A DNA stretch of 37,363 bases, from NCBI GenBank assembly GCA_021162685.1, contig JAGGYF010000035.1, forward strand, positions 1 through 37,363, in the 5' to 3' direction. Positions 3 through 35,579 of the stretch are shown in pieces. The DNA comes from Candidatus Iainarchaeum sp. Lineage in GTDB: Archaea > B1Sed10-29 > WALL01. Within the stretch, counting starts at the first letter, position 1; each line of letters opens with the position of its first letter. The notes beneath the pieces are model-generated. The model made no database searches. It was given only the letters and a program-made list of their open reading frames with translations, and had not been told where the DNA came from. The translations under genes and the position numbers were made by a program.

Positions 3-275
3 GACCTCGAACAAATAGCGAACTTCTTTGAAGAACATGGCGATGAGATAAAAGACATTGATGAAGACCTGTATTACAAATTAGCGAATTATTACAACAC
101 AGAACTCGCCATATACAGATTGAACGAAATAAACAGAGGAGAAAACGTAGATGAAAATGTTGAATTCTTGGCAAATAACTATGGAGCTCTCAAAGACTCT
201 CTGGAAACACTTGGTAAGCATGATATTCTAGACGAAATGAAACGCGTTCTCAAAGAACATGGGTATGAAATTGAG
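3..275 (+). repeat. Copy A (partial) of ~330-bp coding module shared with the giant ORF
   Basis: 219-275 is identical to 12951-13007 (57 nt). 119-152 is identical to 12521-12554 (34 nt). 9-32 is identical to 12411-12434 (24 nt). Confidence 0.92.
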
Positions 276-1781
276 GCAGAAGAGCAACCAACAGAAGAAG
301 AGGTAGAAGAGCAACCAACAGAGGAAGCAGAAGAGCAGCCAACTGAAGAGGCAGAAGAACAGCCAACAGAAGAGGAACAACCAACTGAAGAGGTAGAAGA
401 ACAACCAACAGAGGAAGCAGAAGAGCAACCAACTGAAGAGGAACAACCAACTGAAGAAGAGGTAGAAGAACAGCCAACAGAAGAGGTAGAAGAGCAACCA
501 ACTGAAGAGGCAGAAGAACAACCAACAGAGGAAGAAGCAGCAGAACGGCCACCAGCAAAACCAAAAGTAAGAAGAGTGAGGAAGAGGAGGGTAAAAAGGC
601 TATGGAAAGGGTTGGCACCAGAAGAAAAATTGAAAAGAGCAGTTCTTGGTCTCAAGAGCAATGTACGAATATCCAGTGATATTATAGAAGAAGTTTCTTC
701 CATATGCTCCACAGAACTTGACGAAATTAGCGATACACCTTCAGAAGAGGAGAGAAGGATATTAGAGGACATGCTTGATTTTGCAGTATATTCAGGAAAG
801 ATGAATGCAGAGCAGATAAATAGGATTATCTCAAAACTTGGTTTGTTAGAAAGAGAACAGAGAGGAGAAAGTGAAGCAACACAGCGTTTGGCAGGAATTC
901 GTGATGTTTTGAGGAGAAGACACCCCTCTCTCTATCGTGAGATTTTTCCAGCAACGAGGCTGACCAGAGAGGCACAGGAAAACATCCTTTCGGGGTTAGG
1001 AATATCTGCTTATTACCACGATGAGATTCCCAAAACAATGCTTGACAGATACGCAGGTAAGAAAGTAGATGAGATAGTTAGTGCTATCAGGAAGGAGTCA
1101 TTGGACAAAATGAAAGACCTGCTTGGTGAAGGACTTTCTAATAGAATGCTAGATGCACAGCAGGTAATGTTTAACATTGCTTTAGAGAAGAAAGAGATAA
1201 AGCCAGAACAACTTGCAGAGATTAAGGAAGGATTTGAAAAGATAAAAGGAAAACTTGAAGAGAGCAACTATGAGGAGTTTAAGGAATTTGTTTCATCACT
1301 CGGACCAGAACTCAGATCACTTGTAGAAACACCAAGCGAAGCGGTCAAAAACCTTAATCTTAAAATGAGAGCAAAACTGAAATCATTAGAACTTAGGGAA
1401 AAAGGAGAGTTTTATAATCCAGATGTTGTCGCGGAGAATGTAGTGAAAGGAATTTTCCCGGAAGAGAAGGTCGATATGCTTTTAGAAGCACTAGGTAATC
1501 TTAGCAAGTTTACAAATAGAAGAGGGAGTTTGGAACACTTTGCTGAGAGACTTTCTTCATCGCCAAGAATACTTGATGAGTGTATTGATTCTTTTAGGAG
1601 AATAGGTAAAGTGTTTGCTTCATTGCCAGATTATGATAAGGAGGCAAAAGATGTATATAAATCAAACTTGGATACATACTTCTCGCTGGGTGAAGACTTA
1701 GCTATTGAAAAAATAAAAGAGTTTGCGGAAAGAATAGAGAGCGAGATGAAAGGCAAAACGACAAAGAAGGGGGAGAAATGA
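3..1781 (+). CDS. 5'-truncated repeat-containing protein (shared ~110-aa module, acidic EEQPT repeats, basic patch, helical C-terminal region)
   Basis: The frame is open from base 3 (DLEQIANFFEEHGDEIK...), upstream of the TTG at 120 used by the ORF track. The N-terminal part matches the repeat module at 12357-13013. The stop overlaps the next ATG (ATGA). Confidence 0.85.
   Translation, partial: DLEQIANFFEEHGDEIKDIDEDLYYKLANYYNTELAIYRLNEINRGENVDENVEFLANNYGALKDSLETLGKHDILDEMKRVLKEHGYEIEAEEQPTEEEVEEQPTEEAEEQPTEEAEEQPTEEEQPTEEVEEQPTEEAEEQPTEEEQPTEEEVEEQPTEEVEEQPTEEAEEQPTEEEAAERPPAKPKVRRVRKRRVKRLWKGLAPEEKLKRAVLGLKSNVRISSDIIEEVSSICSTELDEISDTPSEEERRILEDMLDFAVYSGKMNAEQINRIISKLGLLEREQRGESEATQRLAGIRDVLRRRHPSLYREIFPATRLTREAQENILSGLGISAYYHDEIPKTMLDRYAGKKVDEIVSAIRKESLDKMKDLLGEGLSNRMLDAQQVMFNIALEKKEIKPEQLAEIKEGFEKIKGKLEESNYEEFKEFVSSLGPELRSLVETPSEAVKNLNLKMRAKLKSLELREKGEFYNPDVVAENVVKGIFPEEKVDMLLEALGNLSKFTNRRGSLEHFAERLSSSPRILDECIDSFRRIGKVFASLPDYDKEAKDVYKSNLDTYFSLGEDLAIEKIKEFAERIESEMKGKTTKKGEK
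276..540 (+). repeat. Coding tandem repeat, about 11 units of (A/V)EEQPTEE
   Basis: Imperfect 18-27-bp units (gaagagcaaccaacagaagaa and variants), all in frame. Confidence 0.92.
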
Positions 1782-2440
1782 TCCTAAAGAAAAAGGCAAA
1801 GAGTGTAGGGTATAAGGGATTTAAGGAATTTCAGAAGCAGGTAAAAAAGCAAGAAAAGCAAGCCAAGAAGATCAAAGAATGGCACCCAATTGAAAAGCGG
1901 TTTGAGAAGTATAAGCAAAAGGTTACGACAGAGGGAAGGAAAAAGGTGAAACTTTTTGGTACAGAGGTTATCGCGAATGAGGAAGAGGCGAGGATTGTTA
2001 AGAGATACCTTGAAGCAACAAGGGCAACAGAAGCATTTGGTGAGGTAAAAAAACCAGAGGAATTAGTAGGAGAGAAGATACCAGCAAGAGTTATGCGCAG
2101 AGCGATGAGGTATGACCAAGTTCTTAGGGAAATGGAGAATATAGAAGAAGGAGAACAAATACCAAGTATGGAAAGAGTTGAGGGCAAAGAGCCAGAGGAA
2201 GAAAGGCAATCAGTTATGCCCACTGAGCCACAACGGCCCAGGGGAGAGACAGAGGAGGTTATACAACCAATGACTGAAGACACTGAGGGAATGATGGTTC
2301 CTTTGGAGACTGAAACAGTGGAAAAGAGAGTATACAAAAGAGGAGTATATGTTAGTGGAGCAGGATTTGAGATTGGTGCCATACTTCCCATAATAATTAT
2401 ACTTGTAATACTTTTCATCATACTCAACTTCATAAGGTGA
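1778..2440 (+). CDS. Hypothetical protein with basic N-terminus and a single C-terminal transmembrane anchor
   Basis: 220-aa ORF coupled to the upstream stop. It ends in AILPIIIILVILFIILNFIR. Confidence 0.8.
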   Translation: MILKKKAKSVGYKGFKEFQKQVKKQEKQAKKIKEWHPIEKRFEKYKQKVTTEGRKKVKLFGTEVIANEEEARIVKRYLEATRATEAFGEVKKPEELVGEKIPARVMRRAMRYDQVLREMENIEEGEQIPSMERVEGKEPEEERQSVMPTEPQRPRGETEEVIQPMTEDTEGMMVPLETETVEKRVYKRGVYVSGAGFEIGAILPIIIILVILFIILNFIR

Positions 2441-2444
2441 GGGA

Positions 2445-5400
2445 TTGCCACTGTTCAGAAAGAAGAGAAGGCCGTTTATATGGTTGAAACCTGGCGAAAG
2501 AAAAGCATACAAAAGAGTAGTGGATAGAAGACCGTTTCCAATAGGTATGAGGAAGCCCTATGAGCAGGTAAGGGGGCTGTTTGAAGAGGCAAGAGAGAGA
2601 GTACCAGAAAAAAGGCCGGAGGAGAAACCAAAGGGCATAGACATTGAGCGATTGAAAAGATTAACAGGGCAACCACCTAAAGAACAAGAGAGAGTACGAA
2701 TTGACATTGGTAAGTTGAAAGAGGCAGCAGAGCGACCAGAGGAGAAACCAAAGGGCATAGACATTGAGCGATTGAAAGCATTGGCAGAGCGACCCATAGA
2801 AATAGAGGTTCCAGAGGAAAGAGAGCTAACAGAAAGAGAGTTTATAGATACGCTCCGTTTTTACGTTGAGCACGGAAAACCAATCTCTGGATGGCTGAAA
2901 GCAAAGATAAGGGAAGGAGGGTATGACCTAGACAGATTAATGGAAGCAGCAGGCGTTCCACCAGAGGAAAAACCAGCGGCGCTTCCTCTACCAAAACCTG
3001 TACCTGTGAAACGTATTACACCATCTGAGGAGTTACCAGAAGAGAAGATTAGGGAGATTAGAGAAACAGAGCTAAGCAAAAATACCGTATACAATATATT
3101 TGAGCCATATGATATGAAGGTACTTTACCTCAACTTGATTTTGAATAAACCTAAGGAGATGCTACAAAATAGTCAATTTCTGCGTGATGAGATACGTGCA
3201 TTAGCTCAGAATGGGGAGTTACATGAAGAAAAGGCAAACAAGATTCTTAGCGAATTTGATACATTCAAAGAGCAGATTATTCCTATAGTGGAAGAGCACG
3301 GAAAGATACTTGTAGATGCAGAGAAAAAGCAAGAGAAGATACTTTCAAAGGTTGATGAAATAGAAACAAGTGTCAAAGAGCACGAAAGAACAATCAGTGA
3401 GTTAGAAAAAAGGCTTGGACAGACAAATCCAAATGAGATGAAAGAGCTCGGAGATGGATTAGTTGCTGCGATAGGAGATATGAGGAAGCAAAAGGAAGAA
3501 CTTGAAGCATTGACAAGGGAACTTAAAGAGAAGATTAAAGGCGACACCGTAGAGAGAGAAACAGAGGAAGCACGCAGAAAGCTTGAGGAGAAGATTACAC
3601 GTTTGGAAGGAAATTATGTATTACTAGAAGAGGCAGTTGACAAGCATCTAGATATGCTCTCAGAGAGTATGGAGAAACAGAGGATGCAGTTGGAACAGAG
3701 TGCCTCGCTCCTCAACGAAATGGTTAAGAAAGGAACATACTCATTAGAGGATGTACAAAAGGTTTCTGGTGTAGTAAAACAACTAAACGAAACAGAGAGA
3801 GAAAAAGAGGATAAGGAGAATTACGTTAAGCAGTATTCAGATGTTATAAAGTCAATGAGAAAAGGGGACAAGCTTAGCGAACTAGAGACACATCTAAATG
3901 GGCTTTCCGAGACTATTAAGAATACATCTATCCAACTAGAGGAAGCAGTAAACAGGATAATAGAATCAACCAAGCCACCGTTAACTCTTGCTAGGAGAAC
4001 AGCAGAACAGATTGGAAACGTATTAACTGGTTTGGAAGAGGATATAAAACCAGAAAGGAGAGTAATGTTGAAAACATTAGAACATTCTCTTGGGGAGTAT
4101 GACACGAGAATAGAGAATGCCGAGAGAGCAATTGAGCATTTAAATGAGTTAAATAAGTCATTTGATGTTGAGGATGAACTAAAAGATGCAAAAAAAATCA
4201 TTGAAAATTTGAGGGATTCTAGAAATAAAGCAGAAGAGACATTACGCAATATGAAGATGACATACGAAAGACTAGATGAGAAGAAGAAGCTGCTCTCTCC
4301 TGAAGACATACAAGAGATTGAGAGGGGACTTAATGCTCCAATAGACCATGTAAAGCCAGATGTGGCCATAGGGGCAATAGAGGATTATTTGAATAAGAAA
4401 CAAAGAGAGGGCATAAAAACAATTGAAAGGGTTGTAACAGATATCCGCACAAAAGGCGTCCCAGAGATTTCTGTTAGTATAGATGAACTAACAAAAGCTG
4501 TTGAGACATTAAAGAAAGCAGGTGTTCCTGGAGATGAGGTCAATGAACATCTTGAGAGGGTTAAGGGAGAACTTTTATCAAGAATGCAGAGGGACACAGA
4601 AGAACTTAAAAAACAGGTGGATTCAAGGACAATGAAGATTGAGGAAAAAATTTCGGAGATAGAAAGGGACCCAAGTGCGATTGATGAAGTAATCAAAATG
4701 AGGGAAGAAATAGAGGGATTTAAGGACAGGATAGATGAGATGGTTGCACTTCAGAAAGCAGCAGAAGAAAAAGGTGTTGAAGTTAAGGTTTCTCTTGATG
4801 AGATAAAACAAAGCGTTGAAGAGCTACCAAATGAAATTAATCAGAAGATAAAGGAGGCTGTGGAAAAACAGATAGTGCTGATGACTAAGCAGCATGAGGA
4901 AACAGTGAATAAAATAGATGAAGAGATGCAGAGACTTAGATTGGATCTTGGTGTAGCAAAAACATCTGAAGACATTGCTGAAATCAATTCAAGATTAAAT
5001 GAAATTCAAACCAAATACAGCGAGCAACTGAGAAAGATTAGCGAAACCATTGAAAAACTTAAAACTGAACCGACCGAAGAAGCCGTTGGAAGAACGTTAG
5101 AAGAATTAAACAAAAAGCAAGAGGACATTGAAAGCTCTATTAATGCGTTAAGGGCAGAGGTCTCCGAAACCCATTCAAAACTTTCTGAAATAAGTGATAT
5201 TGTTAGGAGGATTGAGAGCACTTTATCCGATTTACCAAAGTATGAATTACAGGAACTTCCTTCCAAGATGGATGAAATAAATGCTCAAATAAAGCTTCTA
5301 GCAGAGAAAGGCGTATCAGAAGAGAAGATCAATGAATTGAGAAGAAATCTAATTTCAGAGATGAGCAGGCGATTTGAGGAACAGACAAATAGGTTTGCTA

Positions 5401-8400
5401 GCACAGAGGAAAAGATTACTAGGAATATTGAGGAGATAAATGAAACAATTAAAAATCTAAGTGAAAGAATTTCAGAAGAAGGCGTTTCAGAGCAGATAAA
5501 CAAGCTTGTTGAGGCAAGGAGAGCCCTCTCAGAGGAATTGCAGAACTTGAGAAGAGCAGTAGACATACTAAAAGAGGTCTCGGGTAAAGAAATTGACCTT
5601 GGCGGTGTGGACGAACTAGTTAGGCAACATGAGGCAATAAAAGACGGCATTTCTGATTTGGTCAAGAAGCAAGAAGAATTGGGAAGAAAGATTGAGGAGA
5701 ATGAAACTAATACAGAACAAGCAATACAAGATGCAATGGATAAACTCTCTAGTGAACATAACACAATTATCTCTAGACTTACAGATATTGATGAAAGACT
5801 GGATGAAAATCTCACCAATATAAAATCGGCAGTTGAAAGGGAGGAGACGCTAGATACAGCAATGATTGAGAACATCAATAAGTCAGCAGAGCAGATTAAT
5901 AGGTTGAGGTATGAATTGGAAACAGTAAGAAAATCAATTGAAAATATCAGAGCAATTGGAGCCGACACAACAGAGCTTGAGAGAAAACAGAACGAAATTT
6001 TGAGAAGGATTGATGAGTATAAGGAGAGGCTTGAAGAAAAGGTCACTAAAGGATTCGAAGAGATACAAGATTTGGTTAATCAGAAAATTAATGATGTAAA
6101 TGCAAACATGGATGAAAAATATGAAAAATTTAAGAACCTTATCCTACAACTTCCATCAAACCCACAACTGATTGATGAAATAAGAGGAGCAAGGGACGAT
6201 ATAATAAAGACACGCAACGAATTAACTACGAAGTTAGATGTTATACAAAGAACAATTGACGATTTAAAACGAAATCCTCACTTCAAGCCGCCAGACACTT
6301 CTGGAATAGGGGAGAGATTACGTAACATTGAGGATTTGATTAGAAATGAAGCGGATAATGTTGTTAGCAGTGTTGTAGAAGAACATAAAAAGACAAGAGA
6401 GGACTTAGAAAGAAGAGCAGAAGAACTAGACAAGAAACTAGAGGATGCAATCAATAGACTAAAAAAACCTGGGATAACAGATGAAGAAAGGGAAGAGCTG
6501 GTCAGGGAAATAAAAAAGATTGCAGAAGATAAGGACAAAGTATATAAGCAATTATCTGAGTTATCAGAACAACTGAGCAATGTGAGTGCAGGACTTAGTG
6601 GCTTGGGCGCGAAGGTAGATGCGTTAAAAGATGAGCATAAAAAGTTGTCAGATGAGTTATCCCAGATCTCTAGAGCTACTACTGAAATCACCTCAATGCT
6701 TTCCAGATTAAGCACGAGAGTTGCAGAAAAAGAAGACATAGATGTGGTGGTCAGAAGGTTGGAGGAGCAAGGCGAAGAATTAACAGGACTTAGAGAGATG
6801 CTTGAAACATTTATCAAACAAGCAGAAGGAGGAATGCGGGAAGCATATATGGAAGACATCTTGAGGGAAGATGAGAGATGGAGAAAGGAGGTAGAGGAAC
6901 TGGAGAAGAAAGAGCGAGAATATGAAGAAACAGGTAAGGAACTGGATGAATTGAAAAAGGCCATTGAAGAATGGAAAAGAGAGGAAGTTGGTAGGCCTCC
7001 TGTGAGTGATGAGGAGATTAGAAAGGAAGTTGAGAAATTAGAGGAGCATAAGAAAGAGTTAGAAGAGATGAGCAAAGAGTTAGAAACGTTTACTTATGGA
7101 AGGGTCCGGTCATTAGTTGCTGAGGGGTATCCCGAGGAAGCAACTTCAGAACTAGAAACACTTGCAAGCCAGGGAAGATACAATGAATTTTTGGATAAGT
7201 ATGAAGAACTTGTTAGGACAGCTATAACTGCAAAGGGTATAATAGATAGGGTAATTGAATCCGTTCCAGAACATTTGAGGGGGAGAGCAATTGATACCAT
7301 AACCAAGCCAGAGGCAATGGCAACAATGGCGCCAGTTGAGATTGAAGACCTGGTAAAGAAGCAGGTTGAGTTGTTTTTAAGGGACGAATTAAACAAATTC
7401 TATGAAAAGAACAACGTATCAAGGGATTTGCAGACCTATCTTGATGCTCTGGTATCTGCTGGAACCATTACTCCGAAGGATGTATTAGAGCAGAGCGATA
7501 TTTACAAAAGGATTGTGAAGGATTTTGAGGAAGTGAAAAGGAAAAGGGAGTTGCCAGAGGAAGTTGTTAAAGCAGTTGGAAAGGAGAGGGTTGAGGTTCC
7601 AGAAGAACATATAATACCTGTTACGAACGTTCCGAAGATAAACGAAATAAAATCGGATGCAAGGCAGGTTCTTCCGAACGAAGTTGTTGACTCTGTGCCA
7701 GATTATGAAGTAAATCAAATGCTTGATAAAGAGAATGTTCCAAAGCGTATACAAGAGCAACTGAAGAGAATAGAAGAGAAAGTAGATAAAATAGAAGGGC
7801 TTTTGCGCGAAAAGAAGGAGGAGTTAGAGAAGGAATATCCAGATCCAGCAAGAATTGCCGAAATAAACAAAGCTATAGAAAAGGCAGAGGAAGACATAGA
7901 AAAGTCAAAATCAACTATTGTGATTGGAGCGTTTATGGCACCAGAGAAGAAAGAGGAGATAAAGAAAGCACTTGATGACGCTAAGGATATTGAGAGGAGA
8001 TATAAACGCCTTGAAAGGGTCAAATCACCGTATGACCTATTTGGGGCAGAGATTCTTGAGACTATGCCAAAAACCCTCTCAAAAGAGGACGTAGAGGAAA
8101 TAGTAAATCCTGAAGGCATTGAAGAAAGGATAGCATCACTTGAAACCCAGGTAAGAGACCTGAAAGACAGGATAATGGAGCGTTCCAAAGAACCAGAAAA
8201 GATTGATGAGTTGATTGAATCAATTGAGGAATTCAAGAAAGCATTGACAAAACTTGCATTAGAATCAAAAGTTATAGGAAGAAATGAAGAGCAAGTTAAG
8301 AAAATTATGGATACGATTAATGGACTTAAGTCGGAGATAGAAGATGTTAAGGCAATAACTCCTTCTATCACCTCGGATCAAATTAATAAGACAGCAGAGA

Positions 8401-11400
8401 ACTTGGCTTCTGGAGCGATTACACCAGAGGATGCAGAAAATAGACTAAATTACTTCATGGATATTATCAAAAAGCAGGGATTGGTTCCAGAATCTTCAGA
8501 GTACAGGCAATTAATTGATTCTGTGAACAGGTTGCGTGAAGCACTGGAAAAAACAAAACTGAATAATGCTCTAAAAATACTTGAAGAACCCAGCATTGCA
8601 GAGGAGTTATTATGGGTCCAATCACTAAGTCCAGACATGGAGGGAGCGGGAGAAGTATTCAAGAGGGTGCACGAAGCATTGTTTATAGGCGATGTTGAGA
8701 GGATAACACAAGCAGTTGAAGAAGCAAAACGCATACAACCAGATCTAGAGAGGTCAGTTAAAGATGCAACAGTTGTTGAAGATGAAATCTCAAAGGAAAT
8801 AGAATCATTCATACCCACAAAAGCAAGTGATGAGGATATTGTCCGTGTCAGAAGGGAAATGGAAAGAACAAATGAGAAAATAGAGGAATTGGGACTCCTT
8901 TCAGAAAAGCCAGTAGTAAAAGAAATGATTGACAGATTGCAGACCAAAATATCTATACTAAATGAATTGATTGAAGAAGCAGAAAGAAGAAAACTGGGGG
9001 AAGTTGCAAAATCAAAGCCAATAGAAGAAGTGCCAGAGGAAATACAAAAGAAATTGAACAAACTTGATAAAGAATGGGAATCAGTTGAAGAAAAAGTGGA
9101 TGCATTATATGATAGGCTTGCCGAGAAAGTTGCAGAACTGGAGACAAAATGGCAGTCCATTGACAATTACTATAACAACCTTATAACAATGCTTGAAGAA
9201 GCCATTAAGAAGATGCCAGATGCAGAAGATACACTAAGAAACAAAATAGATGAATTGAAGAAACAAAGAGAAGAATTCAGAGAAACAATTTCAAATCAAG
9301 CAGGAAGCATAATCTCTGAAACAGCTGCGCCCGTTGATGATGTTTATGAAATAGACGAGTTGATAACATACAACATAGAGAAAGGCAATGAGGAGGAAGT
9401 AAAGTCATTGGTAGATCGGCTTGGGAAAAAACAAGCTGAAGCATACAAGAAGATGGAAGAACTTACGGAGAAGGCTGAAGCAAAGCTCTCAGAACTTTCA
9501 GAGAAACTCAAGGAGCATGAAGCGTTTAGATATATGGAAGAGGTTTTACCAGTACTTACAAAGGATGAGAGGGATAGATTCTTTGAGAAGGCTGCATTGC
9601 AGAGGGGGAAGTATCTTGTGAAAGAACCGGAAAAGACACCATTTGATTCAACGCCCGAGAGCATAGATAGCTGGCTGAGTCATTGGAGAGTATATCTATC
9701 CCAGAAGAGGCTTACTGAAGAAGAGCTTAAAGAGATGGTAGAGAGACGTAAACAAAAAGTAAAGGAGGATGTGAAAAGAGGGGTAGTGCGATTTGAGATG
9801 AAAAAGAAAAAAGAACCTGTTAAAAGACTTGTGAAATCAGAACCTCTGTTTGAAGGACTCTACGCGAAGTTGAAAAGCTTTATGAATCCTGAGGATTTCA
9901 AGGCACTTGAAAATAGAGTGAATGAAAAAGCAAGGAGTGAGCCCGAAAAGACTACTGAAATTTTTGAGTCAGAAGTCAGAGAGGAGCTAAATATTCCAGA
10001 AGAGAAATTCATTATTGATGGCGTTGATGAGAAAGCAGAGGAAGTAAAAGAGAAAAGAAAGGAAGAGTTATCAAAGAAAGAACCAGCAAGAATACTACAA
10101 GAAACAATAAAAGATGCGGAAAAGGTTGTTGAGACAGAAGGTATTGATGTAACGCAGGAAGAGATGAAAACATATTTAGAGATGCTTCCGATATCAATAC
10201 TTAAAGGCATGGAAGAAAGCAGAGAAACTGCAGTAGACGGATTAAAGAGGAGTATTGAGAAACAAGGTTTGCCTTCAGAAAAAGCAGAAGAGATTGTCAA
10301 AATTGTAGAAACAAGGATTAGGGATGCAAAACCAGCTTTTGACAAACAACTTGGAAAGGATGTGACAGAGGAGAAGAAAAGGATTATAAATAAGATTCCA
10401 GAAGCATTGCATGAAACGATAAAGAAAAGGACAGGTGTTGAAAACCTTTTAGAACTTGATAAAGACTTCCTCCAGGAAAGATTAGATGCCATAGAATTCA
10501 TTCAAAACACGTTCTTGCCTAGGTTCCCCGAAGCAGTAAAGTCTTTGAAAGAAAAGGTAAAAGTTCCTTTGGCATTGGTTTCTTTGGATGTTTTAAAGAA
10601 GGAATATGAAAAGGCAGAAAAGAAACGTGAGAAAGAAAATGAAGAGTTTTTGGATAGGCTTTCAGGCTGGGCTCAAGGTCTTCCTCCTGAAGTCTATTTA
10701 ACACCTGAAAAGAAGCCAACGATAGATGAAGCAATGTCAATTGCAAAACGGGCATTGAAGAAGATAGGGGAAGAATGGAAACTAAGTGAGGATACCTACA
10801 AAGCAGTTGAAAAAGGCGTTTCTGAATTTGTTGGTGCGCATGCTGGCAAATATAACACTACTAAGGAGTTGTATGATGCAATTATGACACATGCAGAGAT
10901 TATAAAGAGCAACTACTTGTGGGATTGGTTTGAGGAGTTTAGGGCATGGGCGATGAAACCCATTGAGAAACCAGTTGAAGTAAAAAAACCAGAGGTGAAA
11001 AAAGGCATATTAAGTCCAGAAGATGAAGCGTTCCTCCAGGGAATTCTTGATTGGGGAAAAGTGGTAGAAAAGCCTTTAGAAGCAACAGAATTCATGGTGA
11101 ATACTGCACTAACGTATTACATGAGTTCGCCGTTTAAGGAAGCCACTGATAAACTTCTAAGACAAGTTGGGATGTACAGAAATGAGAGGATGAGAAGGTC
11201 GCTAAAAGAAAAGGTGTTTAAGCAACTGTTTGAGAGAGCAACACAGTTTGAAAAAGCAAAACGCCTTTTTGAGGGCATATCCAGAGACAAACTTATAGAT
11301 GCTACTAGGTATATAGAGACAGCAAATAGAATGGTTGAAACAGCAATAAAGGAGAACAGAATAGGGGACGCAATAGATGTACTTGTGGACGAACTTAAGA

Positions 11401-14400
11401 GGTTCCCAGAGCATAGAACTGAAGAGGAAAGAAAGGCCATTAATGACCTCTTATCCAAATTAAGTGAGAAGAAGACAACGAACATCAAGGAAAAGACTGA
11501 AGAATGGATTGAACGTGTTGACAATGCATTTATTGAGGCACAAGGAGGGGAGCCAGAGCTAGAGCCGCCACCAAAAGAAGTGATAGATTACATCAAATCA
11601 AAGATGGAGGAAGGAAGGGATATAGAGCAAGCAATAGATGAATTAGAAGCAGAGACAGGCATTTCAATACCTGTTAGGGAGATAATAAGAGCAACCATTG
11701 AAAGAGAAGCATTTGAGATGCCAGAAGAGGATATTGAATCCCTTTACGGTAAACTAAATACGCTCTCTTCTCTTGGTATGCATGAAGAATCAGCAGAAGT
11801 CGCTAAAAAGATCATTGATCAAAGTCCAGGCGATTTTCTAATCCGTAGGATAAGAGTGGAAGAACTGTATAATGCAGGTAAGGTAAATGAGGCAATGAAA
11901 GAACTTGAGCAATACATAAAAGAAGCAGAGGAGAGGAATCCACCCTCTGTTAGCATGCTAGAAAATCTAAAAAGAAAGATCATAAAGGATACTAAGGAAT
12001 ACAAACAGATGAAAAGGTGGATTGAGGACCTACGCAAGACTGCAAGTATTCATGATTTGGGATATAATGCACTTATGAAGTTGTGGGAGGAAGGAAAGCT
12101 AACAAGAAAGGACGTAGAGAAAACGACAAAGCTATATGATCTATGGCGTAATATTGGAATGAATGAATATGTTCCTCCAGATGATAGAACACCACTGCAA
12201 AATGAGATTGCAGATGTAATAGAAGCCATAGGCCGAGGTGAAGAAGTAGATGATAGAATCAGAAACATAAAAGAGGAAGTGGAGGAAGTACATAGAAAAC
12301 AGGAGGAAGAAGCAAAAGAAGCAGAGGAATTTCTTGAAGAGATTTTAGGGGAAGCAACAGCAGAGACACTGAAAGAAGAGGCGGAGGAGCTTCTACAAAC
12401 AAACGACCTTGAACAAATAGCGAACTTCTTTGAAAAACATGGCGATGAAATAGAAGAGAGTGCTCCAGAGGTCTATAACAAACTTGAAAACTACTATAAA
12501 ACAAAACTTGCCATAGATGCATTGAACGAAATAAACAGAGGAGAAAACGTAGATAAAAACATCCTACTTTTAACATACCGCTACGAAGATTTCAAAGACT
12601 CCCTTGAAACACTTGGCAGGCATGATATTCTAGACGAAATGGAACGTGTTCTCAAAGAGAGAGGATATGAAATTGAGAAACCAACAGCAGAGACACTAAA
12701 AGAACAGGTGGATAGAGTCCTACAAACAAAAGACACTGAAAAAATAGGGTTCTTCCTTAGAGTGCATGGCGATGAAATAAAAAAGATTGATAAGGACCTT
12801 TACGACAGACTTTCACGCCTTCAGCTCAACACAAAACTTGCCATGGGCATATTGGATGAAATAAACAGAGGAGAAAACGTAGATGAAAACGTTAAGTATC
12901 TGGCAGAGCATTACGAAGGCATCAAAGACTCCCTTGAAACACTTGGCAAACATGATATTCTAGACGAAATGAAACGCGTTCTCAAAGAACATGGGTATGA
13001 AATTGAGAAACCAACTGAGGCAGAGTTGATACGTGTTGCGAGTATACATGATATTGCGAAAGAGCCAGAAAAATATGAATTCAGGGAGGACAGAAAGTTT
13101 ATCGTAAGGAAGAAGGGCACAAAAGCAGTGCAGGGTTACAAGTTGCATATATCCGCAAATGAGGAGAACTATGAGGAAGTATTCAAGACTGTAGCCCCAA
13201 TTGTTGAAAAATATGATATAGGATATAAGTTCGTGAAACCAGAGGAATTTGTAAACGCAAGAGAAACAGAGAACATCTATGGGAAGTTTATAACAATATA
13301 CACAGAGAACCCAGAACAAGCAGCAGCGATTGCAAAGGAAGTTGATGAAGCACTAGCAGAAAAAGATATAGCCACAGGCAGGAAGATAAAAGGGGACAAA
13401 CCATTACCAAACGGAAAATCTGGCCTAGTGTTCTACAGATATGGTGTCTATGATATGTCAATGCCTGGCTATGTTCATCCAGATGGATTAAAACAATACC
13501 AAGAAAGCGTCAGAAAATCTAAGGAAATGGGCCTTATACCACTATCACTAAGAAGTTGGCTAGATTTTGAGAGGAGGCAAGGAAGAAATTGGATAATTCC
13601 TGAGGAAAAGGATAGGAACGGTGTGCCAACAAAGGCAATTCCAGGTTTCCTTGAAAAGGATGAGCTAGAGGAAATGCTTACGAGAAAACCAGTTACACTT
13701 GATAGAGAGCATATAGCGCTCGCTGAAAAACTTGGATTAGATGCGGATAAGCTTAACGAAGAGCAGAAGGAAGCACTGGTCTATGCACAAAAAGCACTGG
13801 AGCTTGCTGAGGAAAACGGAGGAACAGAATGGAAAGAGGACAGATTGAGATTATTGACAGATTATAAGGATAGGGTAGAGAAAAAAGCCTACGAACTTTT
13901 GCTAAATGAATTGCAGATGAAAGCAGATGATTGGTGGGTAGGGAAAAGGCAATTATCTGTTGAGAGTGATGCACAAAGTCTTATAAGGGCATATCTCAAA
14001 GATGGTAAAGTGCCTGATGTAGATGAGATAACAAAAATCATCTATAGAGGCAGACCAAAGAAATGGCTTGAGAAAAAAGGGATGACGCAAGAAAAAATTA
14101 GAGAAATCGTTGAAGAGAGAGTTAAAGCAGAGGAAAAAAACTTAGAGGACGCTGAGAAGAGAGAAGGCGTTGTAAAGGTATTTGTTTATGGAACACTAGA
14201 GAGGCCCGGTTTCCTTGAGGAGATGGGAATCAACATAGATAATGTATCTTTCGTACGTGCTGTAGTACCTGGATTAAAGGCAACGTATCATGGTGGCCTT
14301 ATGAATGATAAATGGGCAAATCCTGTGAAGGCAGATGGAGAGGTATTGAGAGGGACAATCCTCTACATGAGACCAGAGGACTTTGAGAAGATGAAGAAGA

Positions 14401-14867
14401 ACGAGAGATTCTACGAATTTGGAGGTCAGGATGAGGTTGCTGAGTTAGAGAATGTAACTGCACTTGGAAGAAAGATTCCAGGTGTTAAGATATTCTATAA
14501 GAAGGATTATTATGAAATGAGCCCAGAGGAACTTGCGAAAGAAGATATAAAGCAGATGAAAAGTTATCTAGAATGGGGAAGGCGCATTATTAGCGAAGTC
14601 GATAATGACACTATTAAGAAGCTCGCAGAAATGGATCTCGGATCCTTTATAGGCATGGATGCAAGAGATATGTATAAACGTTTGAGGTTAGAATGCGAAA
14701 AGCGCGGGATTGATTTTAGAAAGATAGATGCATTTGACCCCTACTCAACAAGAGAACGCTTCTTTGAGTTGTGTTTGGCTGCAAAGGAGAAGATGGGGGA
14801 AGACGTGAGTAGGTATTTAGAAGAAGAAAAGGCAGTAGAAAAGGAAATTAATAAAAAAGAAGCCTGA
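2445..14867 (+). CDS. Giant (4140 aa) coiled-coil protein with C-terminal TPR-like, repeat, phospho-Ser/Thr lyase-like and GGCT-like domains
   Basis: Uninterrupted 12.4-kb ORF. TTG start lies 4 nt after AGGTGA. E/K/I/L-rich heptad-like sequence over roughly 3000 aa. Recognisable motifs QGYKLHISA...GKFITIY...FYRYG and VFVYGTL. Confidence 0.9.
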   Translation: MPLFRKKRRPFIWLKPGERKAYKRVVDRRPFPIGMRKPYEQVRGLFEEARERVPEKRPEEKPKGIDIERLKRLTGQPPKEQERVRIDIGKLKEAAERPEEKPKGIDIERLKALAERPIEIEVPEERELTEREFIDTLRFYVEHGKPISGWLKAKIREGGYDLDRLMEAAGVPPEEKPAALPLPKPVPVKRITPSEELPEEKIREIRETELSKNTVYNIFEPYDMKVLYLNLILNKPKEMLQNSQFLRDEIRALAQNGELHEEKANKILSEFDTFKEQIIPIVEEHGKILVDAEKKQEKILSKVDEIETSVKEHERTISELEKRLGQTNPNEMKELGDGLVAAIGDMRKQKEELEALTRELKEKIKGDTVERETEEARRKLEEKITRLEGNYVLLEEAVDKHLDMLSESMEKQRMQLEQSASLLNEMVKKGTYSLEDVQKVSGVVKQLNETEREKEDKENYVKQYSDVIKSMRKGDKLSELETHLNGLSETIKNTSIQLEEAVNRIIESTKPPLTLARRTAEQIGNVLTGLEEDIKPERRVMLKTLEHSLGEYDTRIENAERAIEHLNELNKSFDVEDELKDAKKIIENLRDSRNKAEETLRNMKMTYERLDEKKKLLSPEDIQEIERGLNAPIDHVKPDVAIGAIEDYLNKKQREGIKTIERVVTDIRTKGVPEISVSIDELTKAVETLKKAGVPGDEVNEHLERVKGELLSRMQRDTEELKKQVDSRTMKIEEKISEIERDPSAIDEVIKMREEIEGFKDRIDEMVALQKAAEEKGVEVKVSLDEIKQSVEELPNEINQKIKEAVEKQIVLMTKQHEETVNKIDEEMQRLRLDLGVAKTSEDIAEINSRLNEIQTKYSEQLRKISETIEKLKTEPTEEAVGRTLEELNKKQEDIESSINALRAEVSETHSKLSEISDIVRRIESTLSDLPKYELQELPSKMDEINAQIKLLAEKGVSEEKINELRRNLISEMSRRFEEQTNRFASTEEKITRNIEEINETIKNLSERISEEGVSEQINKLVEARRALSEELQNLRRAVDILKEVSGKEIDLGGVDELVRQHEAIKDGISDLVKKQEELGRKIEENETNTEQAIQDAMDKLSSEHNTIISRLTDIDERLDENLTNIKSAVEREETLDTAMIENINKSAEQINRLRYELETVRKSIENIRAIGADTTELERKQNEILRRIDEYKERLEEKVTKGFEEIQDLVNQKINDVNANMDEKYEKFKNLILQLPSNPQLIDEIRGARDDIIKTRNELTTKLDVIQRTIDDLKRNPHFKPPDTSGIGERLRNIEDLIRNEADNVVSSVVEEHKKTREDLERRAEELDKKLEDAINRLKKPGITDEEREELVREIKKIAEDKDKVYKQLSELSEQLSNVSAGLSGLGAKVDALKDEHKKLSDELSQISRATTEITSMLSRLSTRVAEKEDIDVVVRRLEEQGEELTGLREMLETFIKQAEGGMREAYMEDILREDERWRKEVEELEKKEREYEETGKELDELKKAIEEWKREEVGRPPVSDEEIRKEVEKLEEHKKELEEMSKELETFTYGRVRSLVAEGYPEEATSELETLASQGRYNEFLDKYEELVRTAITAKGIIDRVIESVPEHLRGRAIDTITKPEAMATMAPVEIEDLVKKQVELFLRDELNKFYEKNNVSRDLQTYLDALVSAGTITPKDVLEQSDIYKRIVKDFEEVKRKRELPEEVVKAVGKERVEVPEEHIIPVTNVPKINEIKSDARQVLPNEVVDSVPDYEVNQMLDKENVPKRIQEQLKRIEEKVDKIEGLLREKKEELEKEYPDPARIAEINKAIEKAEEDIEKSKSTIVIGAFMAPEKKEEIKKALDDAKDIERRYKRLERVKSPYDLFGAEILETMPKTLSKEDVEEIVNPEGIEERIASLETQVRDLKDRIMERSKEPEKIDELIESIEEFKKALTKLALESKVIGRNEEQVKKIMDTINGLKSEIEDVKAITPSITSDQINKTAENLASGAITPEDAENRLNYFMDIIKKQGLVPESSEYRQLIDSVNRLREALEKTKLNNALKILEEPSIAEELLWVQSLSPDMEGAGEVFKRVHEALFIGDVERITQAVEEAKRIQPDLERSVKDATVVEDEISKEIESFIPTKASDEDIVRVRREMERTNEKIEELGLLSEKPVVKEMIDRLQTKISILNELIEEAERRKLGEVAKSKPIEEVPEEIQKKLNKLDKEWESVEEKVDALYDRLAEKVAELETKWQSIDNYYNNLITMLEEAIKKMPDAEDTLRNKIDELKKQREEFRETISNQAGSIISETAAPVDDVYEIDELITYNIEKGNEEEVKSLVDRLGKKQAEAYKKMEELTEKAEAKLSELSEKLKEHEAFRYMEEVLPVLTKDERDRFFEKAALQRGKYLVKEPEKTPFDSTPESIDSWLSHWRVYLSQKRLTEEELKEMVERRKQKVKEDVKRGVVRFEMKKKKEPVKRLVKSEPLFEGLYAKLKSFMNPEDFKALENRVNEKARSEPEKTTEIFESEVREELNIPEEKFIIDGVDEKAEEVKEKRKEELSKKEPARILQETIKDAEKVVETEGIDVTQEEMKTYLEMLPISILKGMEESRETAVDGLKRSIEKQGLPSEKAEEIVKIVETRIRDAKPAFDKQLGKDVTEEKKRIINKIPEALHETIKKRTGVENLLELDKDFLQERLDAIEFIQNTFLPRFPEAVKSLKEKVKVPLALVSLDVLKKEYEKAEKKREKENEEFLDRLSGWAQGLPPEVYLTPEKKPTIDEAMSIAKRALKKIGEEWKLSEDTYKAVEKGVSEFVGAHAGKYNTTKELYDAIMTHAEIIKSNYLWDWFEEFRAWAMKPIEKPVEVKKPEVKKGILSPEDEAFLQGILDWGKVVEKPLEATEFMVNTALTYYMSSPFKEATDKLLRQVGMYRNERMRRSLKEKVFKQLFERATQFEKAKRLFEGISRDKLIDATRYIETANRMVETAIKENRIGDAIDVLVDELKRFPEHRTEEERKAINDLLSKLSEKKTTNIKEKTEEWIERVDNAFIEAQGGEPELEPPPKEVIDYIKSKMEEGRDIEQAIDELEAETGISIPVREIIRATIEREAFEMPEEDIESLYGKLNTLSSLGMHEESAEVAKKIIDQSPGDFLIRRIRVEELYNAGKVNEAMKELEQYIKEAEERNPPSVSMLENLKRKIIKDTKEYKQMKRWIEDLRKTASIHDLGYNALMKLWEEGKLTRKDVEKTTKLYDLWRNIGMNEYVPPDDRTPLQNEIADVIEAIGRGEEVDDRIRNIKEEVEEVHRKQEEEAKEAEEFLEEILGEATAETLKEEAEELLQTNDLEQIANFFEKHGDEIEESAPEVYNKLENYYKTKLAIDALNEINRGENVDKNILLLTYRYEDFKDSLETLGRHDILDEMERVLKERGYEIEKPTAETLKEQVDRVLQTKDTEKIGFFLRVHGDEIKKIDKDLYDRLSRLQLNTKLAMGILDEINRGENVDENVKYLAEHYEGIKDSLETLGKHDILDEMKRVLKEHGYEIEKPTEAELIRVASIHDIAKEPEKYEFREDRKFIVRKKGTKAVQGYKLHISANEENYEEVFKTVAPIVEKYDIGYKFVKPEEFVNARETENIYGKFITIYTENPEQAAAIAKEVDEALAEKDIATGRKIKGDKPLPNGKSGLVFYRYGVYDMSMPGYVHPDGLKQYQESVRKSKEMGLIPLSLRSWLDFERRQGRNWIIPEEKDRNGVPTKAIPGFLEKDELEEMLTRKPVTLDREHIALAEKLGLDADKLNEEQKEALVYAQKALELAEENGGTEWKEDRLRLLTDYKDRVEKKAYELLLNELQMKADDWWVGKRQLSVESDAQSLIRAYLKDGKVPDVDEITKIIYRGRPKKWLEKKGMTQEKIREIVEERVKAEEKNLEDAEKREGVVKVFVYGTLERPGFLEEMGINIDNVSFVRAVVPGLKATYHGGLMNDKWANPVKADGEVLRGTILYMRPEDFEKMKKNERFYEFGGQDEVAELENVTALGRKIPGVKIFYKKDYYEMSPEELAKEDIKQMKSYLEWGRRIISEVDNDTIKKLAEMDLGSFIGMDARDMYKRLRLECEKRGIDFRKIDAFDPYSTRERFFELCLAAKEKMGEDVSRYLEEEKAVEKEINKKEA
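2613..2790 (+). repeat. Three ~60-bp (20-aa) N-terminal repeats in the giant ORF
   Basis: ggagaaaccaaagggcatagacattgagcgattgaaa occurs at 2621-2657 and 2741-2777. The diverged middle unit reads RIDIGKLK. Confidence 0.85.
12357..13013 (+). repeat. Copies B and C of the ~110-aa module (tandem, 327 and 330 bp)
   Basis: TAETLKE...HGDEI...EINRGENVD...KDSLETLG(R/K)HDILDEM(E/K)RVLKE(R/H)GYEIEKP occurs twice. Confidence 0.92.
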
Positions 14868-30306: not shown

Positions 30307-31355
30307 GTCATCTCCAGAGGAAGTCCGCTTATGACAATAATTTACCCAACCTTCGCAGCTGCTTTCCTTTTGTTGGATGTCTTGAAGGAATCAGTTGAAC
30401 AAACTTTTTCAACGAATTCCTTGCACATATAGCCAGATAATAATTTATTCTTTCACCAGAGTCCTTGTTTACTTTCCCAGAGTTGATTCCCATGTTTTCA
30501 AGCATTTCTTTGATATGCTTGAGCCCTTTGGGTTGTTTTGAGAAAACCTGATCTGAGGGTCTTCCTCCCTCACCAAACAGGTCCCTTCTGCATCCCAAAA
30601 ACCTGCAATGAAATGCTTTTGTATCTCTTCAGAAGCCTTCAAAACGCATTTTGGTGTTTCCCAGCTTGCCTGCGATTTAACAGGCATTTCCAATACTTTG
30701 TGGATATATTCTCCAACTAACTCGCTGTACAGCGTGAGAGTGGTTTGCTTGATAACTGGTCTCACACCAAACTGGTTCAGATAGATTGGCACGAGCGTTT
30801 CACGGAGCCAAGGTTGTTCGCTTTGCTCCATGCCCAGTCCAATGACGTTTCCATCGACTTGGATAAGCCAGCCATCTCTCAACGCACCTGCGAGATAAGC
30901 CAAATCCTTGTTGATTTGCATTGGAAAATGCACTGTCTTGGCTTTGTTGGTAACCATTTTCAAAGAGATTCTTTCAAACTCATCTACCAAACTGAGGTAG
31001 ATTTTTACTGGCAGGTTTCTCCTTCCACTCAAGTATTGATATGAAGTCCACTTGTTTACTCCAAAGTGTTTTTGAAGGTAAGTGGCTCCGCCTCTGTCTT
31101 TGAGTGTTTTTTGAATTACTTTGAACTCTTTCGAATTCAAAACAACTCTTGTCTTGACTGCCTTTTCTCCAAGAATCTCCATCAAATCAACACCACATAT
31201 CTGTTTTGTTTGTTGTGGTGTGATTTTCATTTTAATCACCGCTCCTACTCTTGGGAAAAGCAAGTATATATTGATTTAGCGTTAGCGACCGCGAAGCGGG
31301 AAATCAATATATACCTGCTGGCTTTCTGGTGAAAGAATGCGGACCTCCTACTGGT
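30307..31355 (-). mobile_element. 1049-nt archaeal BHB-type 23S intron (about E. coli 2565/2566) carrying a homing endonuclease gene
   Basis: Junctions CC-CAUC-AA^A...GAUG-AC^A-GG. Removal restores UUCACCCAUCAAAGGCUUACGUGAGCUGGG, whose GGCUU pairs with the upstream AAGCC. Intron terminal stem AGGAGGUCCGC/GCGGACUUCCU. Confidence 0.9.
30329..31230 (-). pseudogene. Two-motif LAGLIDADG homing endonuclease with HTH-like N-terminus, split by a -1 frameshift (pseudogene or recoded)
   Basis: LAYLAGALRDG and HFIAGFWDAEG. The C-terminal LKHIKEMLENMGINS...YYLAI...FVQLIPSRHPTK lies in the -1 frame. SD AGGAGCGGTGAT precedes ATG 31230. Confidence 0.85.
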
Positions 31356-31386
31356 TTGATGGGTGAACAACCCCACCCTTGGCTGC

Positions 31387-31430
31387 CTACAGCCGCACAA
31401 GCCAAGCTCTTGACGAGCGACTTGTGCGGT
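31387..31430 (-). mobile_element. 44-nt BHB-like mini-intron in 23S helix 91 loop (about E. coli 2534)
   Basis: GCAG-CA^A-[hairpin]-CUGU-AG^G. Removal restores GGCUGUGCAGCAGCAGCCAAGG. Confidence 0.88.
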
Positions 31431-34022: not shown

Positions 34023-34048
34023 CTCTAAACCTACATAACCTCTGCAAC
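34023..34048 (-). other. 5' arm of the 23S processing stem (BHB)
   Basis: Complementary to 29920-29945. Confidence 0.9.
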
Positions 34049-34148
34049 CGTCCTTTCGGACGCGCAACGTCACTGCGGATGTCCTGGCTAGGGACCTCCA
34101 CTCTGTTGCAATCACATTGCGTTTTTACACGCAATGCTCATCTGCAAA

Positions 34149-34220
34149 TGGACTCGGAGGGATTTGAACCCCCGACCCCTCGCGTGCAAGGCGAGTGCTC
34201 TTCCACTGAGCTACGAGCCC
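34149..34220 (-). tRNA. tRNA-Ala(UGC), CCA not encoded
   Basis: GGGCUCG/CGAGUCC acceptor stem with G3:U70, CUCGC-CUUGCAC-GCGAG anticodon arm, GUUCAAAUC T-loop. Confidence 0.97.
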
Positions 34221-34781
34221 ATGGTGAGGATTTCAAGGTTACTCAGCCCAGAGTAGTGGGGGATTTCCCCCCGTATGTGTGGGTCAGAACGATTCGGGTT
34301 CCCGTTTGCACACGTCACTTCCTTTTTAGAAAAGGAGGTGATCTAACCGCAGGTTCCCCTACGGTTACCTTGTTACGACTTAACCCTCCTCACAAAGTTC
34401 AGATTCGACTAGACCCTTGGTGGATCTAGCCTCGTCTGAACCTCGCTCGGATGGTTTGACGGGCGGTGTGTGCAAGGAGAAGGGACGTATTCACCGCGGG
34501 ATAGTGACCCGCGATTACTAGGGATTCCATCTTCATGAGGGTGAGTCCCAACCCTCAATCCGAACTAAGCCAAGGTTTACGGGTTTGGCTTCCCCTTTCG
34601 GGGTCGCATCCTATTGTCCTTGGCATTGTAGGCCGCGTGTAGCCCAGGAAATTCGCGGCATACGGACCTACCGTCGCCCGCTCCTTCCTCCGACTTATCG
34701 CCGGCAGTCCCTCCAGAGTGCACCTCCTTCCGTGGAAAGAGGTTTGCAACTGGAAGCACGGGTCTCGCTCGTTGCCTGACT

Positions 34782-34827
34782 TTCTGCCGTGACTGCCTCG
34801 AGCATCTTGACAACTCGCCAGTCACGT
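34782..34827 (-). mobile_element. 46-nt BHB mini-intron in 16S (about E. coli 1092/1093)
   Basis: C-CUGU-UA^A-CGUGACUG...CAGUCACG-GCAG-AA^A-G. Removal restores CCUGUUAAGUCAGGCAACGAGCG. Confidence 0.9.
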
Positions 34828-35395: not shown

Positions 35396-35439
35396 TTCCA
35401 GTTTGCGAGCACAGTTCTTAACATATTGTCCTCGCAAAT
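35396..35439 (-). mobile_element. 44-nt BHB mini-intron in the 16S 530 loop (about E. coli 523/524)
   Basis: G-CCAG-CC^A-UUUGCGAG...CUCGCAAA-CUGG-AA^G-C. Removal restores GUGCCAGCCGCCGCGGUAA. Confidence 0.9.
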
Positions 35440-35548
35440 GGCTGGCACGGGTCTTACCCAGCCCTTATTCCCCAAGCGGTCTAGACTTGGGAAAAGGCTA
35501 CATAAGTAGCCACTTGGAGTCCCCCTGTCACGCTTTCGCGCATTGCAG

Positions 35549-35579
<31 letters not shown>

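Follow-up and report, generated by a model that had tools for sequence, protein, structure and literature searches.

Irreversible release of phosphate through beta-elimination is known, as far as we are aware, from two contexts, the biosynthesis of lanthipeptides and a small number of type III effectors by which the mitogen-activated protein (MAP) kinases of the host are disabled. The lyase domain at the N-terminus of class III lanthipeptide synthetases is represented in Pfam by the family RamC_N (PF25816), and a 2014 survey (PMC4159009) states that both the SpvC-like and the LanL-like lyases are exclusively bacterial. Here we describe a lyase domain of the LanKC type in an archaeon, near the C-terminus of a giant protein encoded by Candidatus Iainarchaeum sp. 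The window analysed is a whole stretch of 37,363 nucleotides of contig JAGGYF010000035.1 (assembly GCA_021162685.1), and all positions are given in its numbering. The identity of the domain, its fold, its conserved catalytic set, its modular placement and the absence of partners from a pathway of RiPPs (peptides that the ribosome makes and that are modified after translation) are established. The reading that we prefer, tentatively, is that of a complete and probably active phospho-Ser/Thr beta-eliminase, independent of RiPP biosynthesis and employed as a payload against the phosphoproteins of another cell, most likely those of a host. The gene and the domain are located as follows.

2445..14867, forward strand: giant open reading frame (ORF), a single open frame of 4140 residues; the product is soluble, Glu/Lys-rich and largely coiled-coil-like, with the lyase domain near its C-terminus
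13062..13664, forward strand: phospho-Ser/Thr lyase domain (RamC_N / OspF fold), residues ~3540-3740

An earlier inspection of the letters alone, referred to as the sequence-only reading, had proposed an OspF/SpvC/LanKC-type lyase at about residues 3545-3740 after recognition of five motifs in a given order. Frame 1 of 13080-13660 indeed translates to QGYKLHISA, GYKFV, YGKFITIY, GDKPL and VFYRYG in this order, with Q3563 at 13131 and VFYRYG at 13428-13445, and both the profile searches and the structural search agree well with the proposed identity. In the Pfam scan of the whole protein, RamC_N matched residues 3543-3672 (E 7e-18; 65.2 bits against a cut-off of 27), covering positions 12-141 of the 191 in the profile. 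The domain alone gave 70 bits (E 2e-19; the same cut-off), and at E up to 10 nothing was found in it except RamC_N and a weak Response_reg_2; in the whole genome there is a single RamC_N match, of 70.9 bits. By phmmer search against the PDB sequences, we identified 12 distinct chains of LanKC type, the best being ThurKC (8sao, E 1.7e-6). With the NCBIfam equivalogs of LanL and LanKC (NF038150 and NF038151), the lyase part alone was matched, and the scores of 64 and 60 bits stay under the respective cut-offs of 650 and 575; a family hidden Markov model (HMM) constructed from 150 relatives, with the window sequence excluded, gave 167 bits over residues 3540-3682.

The AlphaFold2 model of residues 3520-3752, built on an alignment of 74 sequences, showed a mean predicted local distance difference test (pLDDT) value of 77, with values above 90 in the core (model residues ~30-150) and below 50 at model residues 168-214. 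In the Foldseek search of this model against the PDB, the first matches were ThurKC (E 1.4e-8), CuvL and SalKC (E 1e-8 to 1e-6), followed by OspF (3i0u, E 3.5e-6) and then VirA and SpvC (about 1e-5), and at a lower level by PneKC, HopA1 (9e-3) and the class V enzyme LxmY (5e-2). Judged from this predicted model, the order of matches is as expected for a member of the LanKC branch of the OspF fold, and Hernandez Garcia and Nair (PMC10604976) give the same structural neighbours for the lyase domain of ThurKC. Residues ~3540-3740 are confirmed, far beyond chance, as a phospho-Ser/Thr lyase domain of the RamC_N / OspF fold.

The catalytic residues were assigned by alignment with ThurKC, SpvC and VenL, for which the chain index of ThurKC in the phmmer alignment equals the published number minus 3. 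The alignment with the ThurKC and VenL residues bears out the retention of K, H, K, Y, D and R that had been suggested from the motifs.

13140..13148, forward strand: K3566 and H3568 in GYKLH, equivalent to ThurKC K65 and H67, SpvC K104 and H106, and VenL K51 and H53; identical
13227..13229, forward strand: K3595 in GYKFV, the predicted catalytic base, equivalent to ThurKC K94, SpvC K136 and VenL K80; identical
R3606: equivalent to ThurKC K108; conservative change from Lys to Arg
13284..13301, forward strand: K3614 and Y3619 in GKFITIY; K3614 is equivalent and identical to ThurKC K117 and VenL K103, Y3619 is equivalent to VenL Y108
13395..13397, forward strand: D3651 in GDKP, equivalent to ThurKC D152, SpvC D201 and VenL D137; identical
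13437..13439, forward strand: R3665 in FYRYG, phosphate-binding, equivalent to ThurKC R163 and SpvC R213; identical
13491..13664, forward strand: residues 3683-3740, the divergent segment with which the domain ends on its C-terminal side and the expected place of an equivalent of ThurKC R191 / SpvC R220

According to a study and a review of the homologues (PMC10604976 and PMC8341899, respectively), the first Lys binds the phosphate, His acts as the general acid and the Lys of GKFITIY also binds the phosphate. Dehydration by ThurKC is abolished in K65A, K94A, R163A and K108A and impaired in H67A, D152A, K117A and R191A (PMC10604976); seven of these eight positions can be aligned with the window domain, six of them identical and K108 replaced by Arg. 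The essential set of VenL, as given in PMC8341899, comprises W50, K51, H53, K80, K103, D137 and R149, with R156 dispensable, and the window domain keeps all of the essential residues but W50, which is Tyr. In the 74-member alignment, with numbers counted along the aligned piece, the core columns without variation or with almost none are G45, K47, H49, P66, K76, G94, K95, T98, Y100 and R146, among which K95 is invariant and K47, H49, K76, Y100 and R146 are nearly so; the window domain has every one of them.

By homology with SpvC, VenL and ThurKC, K3566, K3614 and R3665 would hold the phosphate of phosphoserine (pSer) or phosphothreonine (pThr) in a bound extended peptide, K3595 would take the alpha proton, and H3568, oriented by D3651, would protonate the leaving phosphate. 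The product would be dehydroalanine or dehydrobutyrine, and the modified site would be, as a consequence, permanently beyond rephosphorylation. On the aligned residues the enzyme looks competent, with one phosphate ligand lacking a placement, and beta-elimination of the phosphate of pSer/pThr is a very probable activity of the window copy.

It is improbable that the fold has been kept in a dead or repurposed enzyme, as a phosphopeptide-binding or purely structural module of the scaffold. The part of the domain that would suit such a role is its C-terminal third: after HPDG (residues 3683-3740) the sequence is divergent, the model falls below pLDDT 50 (model residues 168-214), the alignment of the family HMM ends at residue 3682, and the terminal motif was placed at three different positions in three alignments (A1, A2 and A3). 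The basic residues of this segment are R3690, K3691, K3693 and R3724, none of which was matched to ThurKC R191 / SpvC R220. The R191A change impairs ThurKC (PMC10604976), yet the corresponding Arg of VenL is dispensable (PMC8341899). The incomplete coverage of the Pfam profile and the Tyr at the position of the Trp required in VenL, of which the W50D variant is inactive (PMC8341899), could be taken in the same sense. However, Tyr, Phe, Ile or Ala occupies the Trp position in the nearest relatives, and since these also have no Trp there, the Tyr is a feature of the group rather than a sign of decay. Every catalytic residue that can be aligned is retained, whereas dead enzymes usually lose the base or the acid. 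The variants found in public contigs also argue against loss of function, within the limits of small numbers: five of the seven in the lyase domain are synonymous and the other two conservative (V to I and R to K), and elsewhere in the covered part of the gene two of nine are synonymous.

The enzymes with the best sequence and structure matches, the class III/IV synthetases, work together with a kinase and a cyclase on a precursor peptide, and we searched for these partners. Neither Pkinase nor LANC_like was detected in the 4140-residue protein by Pfam (Pkinase at E up to 1), and no LANC_like match was obtained in the genome, which is 98.4% complete (1.11 Mb in 45 contigs); as a positive control, the same LanC search gave 3 matches in an actinomycete genome carrying a LanKC-type locus. 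The Pkinase-like matches genome-wide were two RIO-family kinases, both under the Pfam cut-off, and the genome scan found neither a Hanks-type kinase above that cut-off nor an FHA domain. A crude screen for precursors, defined by at least two Cys and a C-terminal half with at least 30% Ser/Thr/Cys, gave no such ORF among the 30 of 235 ATG-started ORFs (20-90 residues) that lie mostly outside large genes; the small ORFs with both properties are all antisense inside large genes or rRNA. The sequence-only reading had seen no kinase, LanC cyclase or precursor in the window, which holds, and for kinase and LanC the absence now extends to the whole genome. We conclude that the domain is not a lanthipeptide enzyme and is independent of any lanthipeptide pathway. 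A cryptic split pathway of the lanthipeptide (RiPP) kind, with kinase, cyclase and precursor located elsewhere or too divergent for recognition, is accordingly a far-fetched explanation: it would fit the close matches to the class III/IV lyase domains, and clusters with separate kinase and lyase genes are reported in the 2014 survey (PMC4159009), but it is opposed by these negative searches, by the position of the domain outside the kinase/LanC-linked side of the tree described below, and by the setting, since an enzyme at residue 3540 of a 4140-residue coiled-coil protein is without precedent among the 107 relatives with scanned architectures.

These relatives come from HMMER, run exhaustively over 1.84 billion representative proteins. 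In this search 304 sequences reached an E value of 1e-3 or better and 24 reached 1e-10 or better; among the matches listed (the best 150 of 304), none exceeds 47% identity. A word-index protein search with the domain gave no match. The Pfam architecture scan covered 107 of the 150, leaving out 43 that are all shorter than 350 residues. Pkinase and/or LanC was carried by 30 of the 107, always with the lyase at the N-terminus, and the best ranked of them stands at number 58; among the 57 better matches, the 47 that were scanned have neither domain, and the 10 outside the scan are proteins of 147-348 residues. The other architectures include eCIS_core (4), PT-HINT (2), FHA (4), LRR, annexin, DnaJ, Metallophos, ART-PolyVal and an EDR1-type peptidase, and several relatives are long proteins of 1200-4000 residues. 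FHA is a phosphothreonine-binding domain, and in the four RamC_N-FHA fusions (P0028, P0033, P0036 and P0044) recognition and destruction of pThr would be coupled in a single protein.

A tree was constructed with FastTree from 175 columns of 151 domain sequences; it is a quick one, in which many branches are weak, and we use it for the separation from the synthetase group and for nothing finer. In this tree a branch with support 85 leaves all 30 kinase/LanC-linked rows together on one of its sides, and the smallest side for which this holds has 49 rows. The window domain lies outside these 49 rows, in a side of 25 rows together with the five best matches, two FHA fusions and an ART-PolyVal giant.

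The best match (P0003, 321 residues, 47% identity) comes from G002, a genome that belongs to the same family as that of the window, and is recorded as a hypothetical protein of 'Candidatus Diapherotrites archaeon', and another archaeal relative (P0006) is recorded under 'Candidatus Aenigmatarchaeota archaeon'. A scan with one genome per species gave 535 related stretches; among the best 80 of 535, the top is a metagenome-assembled genome named 'archaeon' (L009) and the other 79 bear bacterial names, mostly of actinomycetes, with a few of Paracaedibacteraceae, Odyssella, Finniella, Oligoflexia and Planctomycetota. From their names, we take the Paracaedibacteraceae, Odyssella and Finniella entries (L018, L033 and L044) to be intracellular symbionts of protists, and that of Oligoflexia (L011) presumably belongs to a predatory group. 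Among archaeal genomes, the Pfam model matched 2 of 31 in the phylum of the window and 3 of 301 in a second phylum with small genomes, and none of 133 in a third phylum with larger genomes. The domain had been called unusual for an archaeon: rare it is, being present in 5 of the 465 archaeal genomes sampled, all from small-genome lineages, but it is not unique, since a group of stand-alone homologues exists in DPANN archaea. The other archaeal copies are encoded by open frames of 260-325 residues, except for one of 469 residues in G002 (annotated protein, 321 residues), and the N-terminal region of the short homologues differs from the window giant. Their neighbours are topoisomerase VI and a tRNA endonuclease, a RadA-like gene, DeoC, GAPDH and TIM, or Hjc and a hydrolase, without a conserved neighbour and without a kinase, cyclase or FHA partner in the 4 distinct loci.

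The carrier of the window domain contains 16.7% Glu, 11% Lys and 2 Cys, and outside RamC_N it gave only weak matches of coiled-coil type (SMC, Rad50 and tape measure) in Pfam, NCBIfam and PHROGs, with no N-terminal trafficking or pre-toxin processing domain in these three libraries. An origin of the giant gene from phage or another mobile element was considered and found to be unsupported: in PHROGs only families of tape-measure type and one of unknown function were matched, over the coiled-coil-like part, and the guanine-plus-cytosine (GC) content is even over the giant gene and its neighbours. The parts that bear on the placement of the lyase are the following.

9030..10985, forward strand: core region of the giant protein (residues ~2196-2847), conserved and colinear with the 3127-residue giant protein of G007
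12405..13028, forward strand: two tandem helical modules of ~100 residues, directly upstream of the lyase; a third copy starts ORF1
3..1781, forward strand: ORF1, its 5' end cut by the contig start; shared module, 11 QPTEE repeats, basic patch and an unknown helical domain

Genome G007, of the same order, encodes a complete giant protein of 3127 residues (L097, 2174-11557), to which the core is 35% identical over 657 columns (E 1e-111, BLASTP). The homology stops at residue ~2847 and G007 has no RamC_N match, and because of these two observations the lyase can be assigned to a lineage-specific C-terminal extension of ~1290 residues. As judged from this sequence comparison, the core of ~650 residues marks out a family of giant proteins in DPANN archaea whose ends vary, and the giant protein shows the conserved scaffold with a variable C-terminal enzymatic module that characterizes polymorphic toxins and polyvalent effectors. 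The helical modules are 66-69% identical to residues 1-108 of ORF1, in which the same module of ~100 residues precedes a different C-terminal domain, helical and unrelated. Homology of the upstream repeats with the N-terminal repeats of the short DPANN proteins was not supported, BLASTP aligning the lyase part alone. Two metagenomic giant RamC_N proteins, of 3690 and 4005 residues, have nothing but the lyase domain in common with the window giant, and since the giant RamC_N proteins share nothing else, domains of this type have been built into large proteins on several independent occasions. A word-index protein search with the C-terminal 840 residues gave no match among giant proteins.

In order to confirm the reality of the fusion, we examined public sequencing runs. 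The locus is present in four runs of one study, labelled as a hydrothermal vent metagenome, in the form of short contigs of low depth that match the lyase at 99% identity or more (for example, 13293-13837 without differences); no RNA run is listed among those with the locus. Contig X4 (13012-13123) bridges the boundary between repeats and lyase, and three runs have depth there. In other contigs (X1-X3; two runs each), different sequence is present before 13059 and before 13200, in frame and open, which is most simply explained by a further, related lyase gene in the community that has a different upstream part. One low-depth X4 contig skips 657 bases (12355-13011) in frame, thereby dropping both repeat modules; its shorter side is only 30 letters long, and the skip may be a repeat artefact. 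These differences, and the repeats that flank the junction, are what would be expected if the assembly had joined a separate lyase gene to the giant ORF across the repeated modules. We regard such an artefact as highly improbable: the frame is open for 4140 codons through both junctions, the repeats are too divergent (66-69% identity in protein) for collapse in assembly, the boundary is bridged by X4 with depth in three runs, and the alternative upstream sequences, in frame and open, look like another related gene rather than a break.

That the enzyme is active, that its substrate is a protein and that the target is a host is what we infer for the function of this fusion. The lyase would represent one module in the variable C-terminal extension (~1290 residues) on a conserved giant coiled-coil scaffold, and it would serve as a payload against phosphoproteins made by the kinases of another cell, most likely of the host. 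A life dependent on hosts is established for DPANN archaea. A target outside the cell, in the proteins of a host or competitor, is the alternative that we favour, with somewhat less than even confidence, because relatives are fused to delivery modules and the domain sits at the variable end of a conserved scaffold, because the own genome is without Hanks-type kinases and FHA domains, and because of this host-dependent life. Several observations weigh against it, in addition to the Tyr at the position of VenL W50 and the divergent C-terminal segment described above. The sequence-only reading had likewise proposed host or competitor proteins as targets, and in this respect it found no support in the giant protein, in which there is no membrane segment or obvious signal peptide (best 19-residue hydropathy, 0.83), no delivery domain recognised by the Pfam scan, and no immunity-like gene directly downstream. 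The giant protein itself was absent from both of the protein collections searched, the public runs belong to one study that is possibly the source of the window itself, and the short DPANN relatives among housekeeping genes fit a cellular role equally.

The same active lyase might instead work inside its own cell, erasing its own pSer/pThr marks irreversibly, either as a one-way switch or in order to provide dehydro-residues for cross-links; this is possible, although we consider it rather unlikely. Candidate substrates would be the proteins on which the RIO kinases act, the KaiC-like ATPases of nearby genes, which phosphorylate themselves, the giant protein and the Thr-rich acidic repeats of ORF1. 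Consistent with an internal role are the missing export signal and delivery module, the housekeeping surroundings of the short DPANN homologues, the FHA, Metallophos and DnaJ fusions of relatives, which fit intracellular phospho-signalling, and the presence of two KaiC-like genes in the window and of 11 QPTEE repeats in ORF1 of the same gene row. However, with no Hanks-type kinase above the Pfam cut-off and no FHA domain there would be few obvious substrates, an irreversible eraser in a genome of 1.1 Mb that is found in 2 of 31 genomes of the phylum does not behave as conserved housekeeping, and the placement in the variable C-terminal extension suggests an accessory, fast-changing role.

Under the preferred reading of a payload for another cell, it is conceivable, but held with considerable doubt, that a DPANN archaeon of hot vents brings the scaffold-borne lyase to its host and there erases Ser/Thr phosphorylation irreversibly. 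As far as we know, eliminylation as a weapon has so far been found only in bacterial type III effectors directed against eukaryotic MAP kinases. If the proposal is true, eliminylation would be a general tool of microbial conflict, including that of archaeon versus archaeon, and the relatives linked to eCIS, PT-HINT and FHA would represent the bacterial side of the same story.

The remaining features of the locus are less directly connected with the lyase.

1778..2440, forward strand: ORF2, 220 residues, charged, with a C-terminal hydrophobic anchor; overlaps the stop of ORF1 and ends 4 bases before the giant gene
14178..14414, forward strand: possible GGCT/AIG2-like region, an unconfirmed lead; the motif VFVYGTLERPGF... 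is similar to the beginning of gamma-glutamyl cyclotransferase (GGACT/AIG2) domains

ORF1, ORF2 with its tail anchor, and the giant gene follow each other closely on the same strand. No Pfam family above cut-off was found in ORF1, which may form the last part of another large protein of the same type as the giant, and no family was found in ORF2 in Pfam, NCBIfam or PHROGs. At residues ~90-180 of ORF1 (270-540) there are eleven QPTEE repeats, in each of which the Thr has strongly acidic surroundings, and a basic patch (PAKPKVRRVRKRRVKR) comes after them; these repeats beside the lyase gene are a possible candidate for a phosphorylation substrate. The GGCT-like region of the giant protein matched Pfam GGACT at E 0.083, under the cut-off, only its first motif aligned with a true archaeal GGACT protein by BLASTP, and it gave no match to PDB sequences, in the family search of its own genome or in the word-index protein search. 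Downstream of the giant gene, leucyl- and alanyl-tRNA synthetase genes (LeuRS and AlaRS) lie on the opposite strand, and the window further includes two genes for KaiC-like ATPases, PAS/histidine-kinase and response-regulator genes, a V4R protein, an arginase-family enzyme, RNase P RNA and an rRNA operon. The rRNA operon (23S, tRNA and 16S; 31220-35896) has 54-55% GC in a genome of 39% GC, and the proteins have the very high content of Glu and Lys that thermophiles show.

With respect to the LanKC/LanL synthetases, the window domain has its best match in both sequence and fold, shares the catalytic Lys, His, Lys, Lys, Asp and Arg, and carries the GKFITIY motif that is specific to the LanKC branch and absent from OspF/SpvC. 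In contrast to the synthetases, it is located at residue ~3540 and not at the N-terminus, is accompanied by no kinase, cyclase or precursor, falls outside the kinase/LanC-linked group, has Tyr in place of VenL W50 and diverges in its C-terminal segment. The effectors OspF, SpvC and VirA (3I0U, 2Q8Y, 2Z8P and 3BO6) are alike in fold (Foldseek E 3.5e-6 to 3.6e-5, ~140 columns, root-mean-square deviation ~3 A) and in the acid/base pair with its Asp, and like them the window domain would act as a stand-alone enzyme on proteins phosphorylated by the kinase of another. It differs from them by an identity of only 16-19%, by a Lys of LanKC type in place of one of the three arginines of SpvC, by its embedding in a giant protein and by the lack of a MAP kinase target in an archaeal setting. 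The likeness is thus one of fold and not of membership in the OspF/SpvC family of type III effectors; the organism is an archaeon, for which no search aimed at secretion systems was made.

The nearest relatives are the stand-alone or fused RamC_N proteins from uncultured prokaryotes (P0003, P0006 and the eCIS_core, PT-HINT and FHA fusions), which also have no kinase or cyclase, but the archaeal ones among them are proteins of about 260-320 residues, and among the archaeal copies only that of the window is built into a giant protein. Polymorphic toxins and polyvalent proteins resemble the window giant in the conserved scaffold core with a variable C-terminus and in the adaptor-like module before different C-terminal domains, and relatives of the domain stand behind PT-HINT and eCIS_core and beside ART-PolyVal. 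Unlike polymorphic toxins, the window giant has no known trafficking, pre-toxin or processing domain and no adjacent immunity gene. The lyase is not mentioned in the first 300,000 of the 357,715 characters of the 2012 polymorphic-toxin catalogue (PMC3482391), the term 'lyase' is absent from the text of a preprint on giant genes (10.1101/2023.11.21.568195), of which the supplementary tables may hold entries, and our literature searches brought up no paper that describes LanKC-type lyases standing alone, be it in archaea or in toxin systems, where again entries may be present in the supplementary tables of PMC4159009.

Giant proteins of DPANN archaea have been suspected, without evidence, of mediating the interaction with hosts. 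For one of them, a concrete enzymatic activity can now be predicted and assayed. For enzymology, the domain would offer a compact lyase free of a kinase, which probably works at high temperature. More widely, the finding that the LanKC-type lyase domain also exists alone, in DPANN archaea and in bacterial contexts of toxin delivery, FHA and giant proteins, points to a wider and as yet unstudied use of eliminylation in microbial conflict or signalling. Compared with the known systems, the domain family is a known one with a Pfam model of its own, and the enzyme is not of a new kind; what is new is the setting and the architecture, that is, an archaeal, kinase-free lyase of LanKC type in a giant protein.

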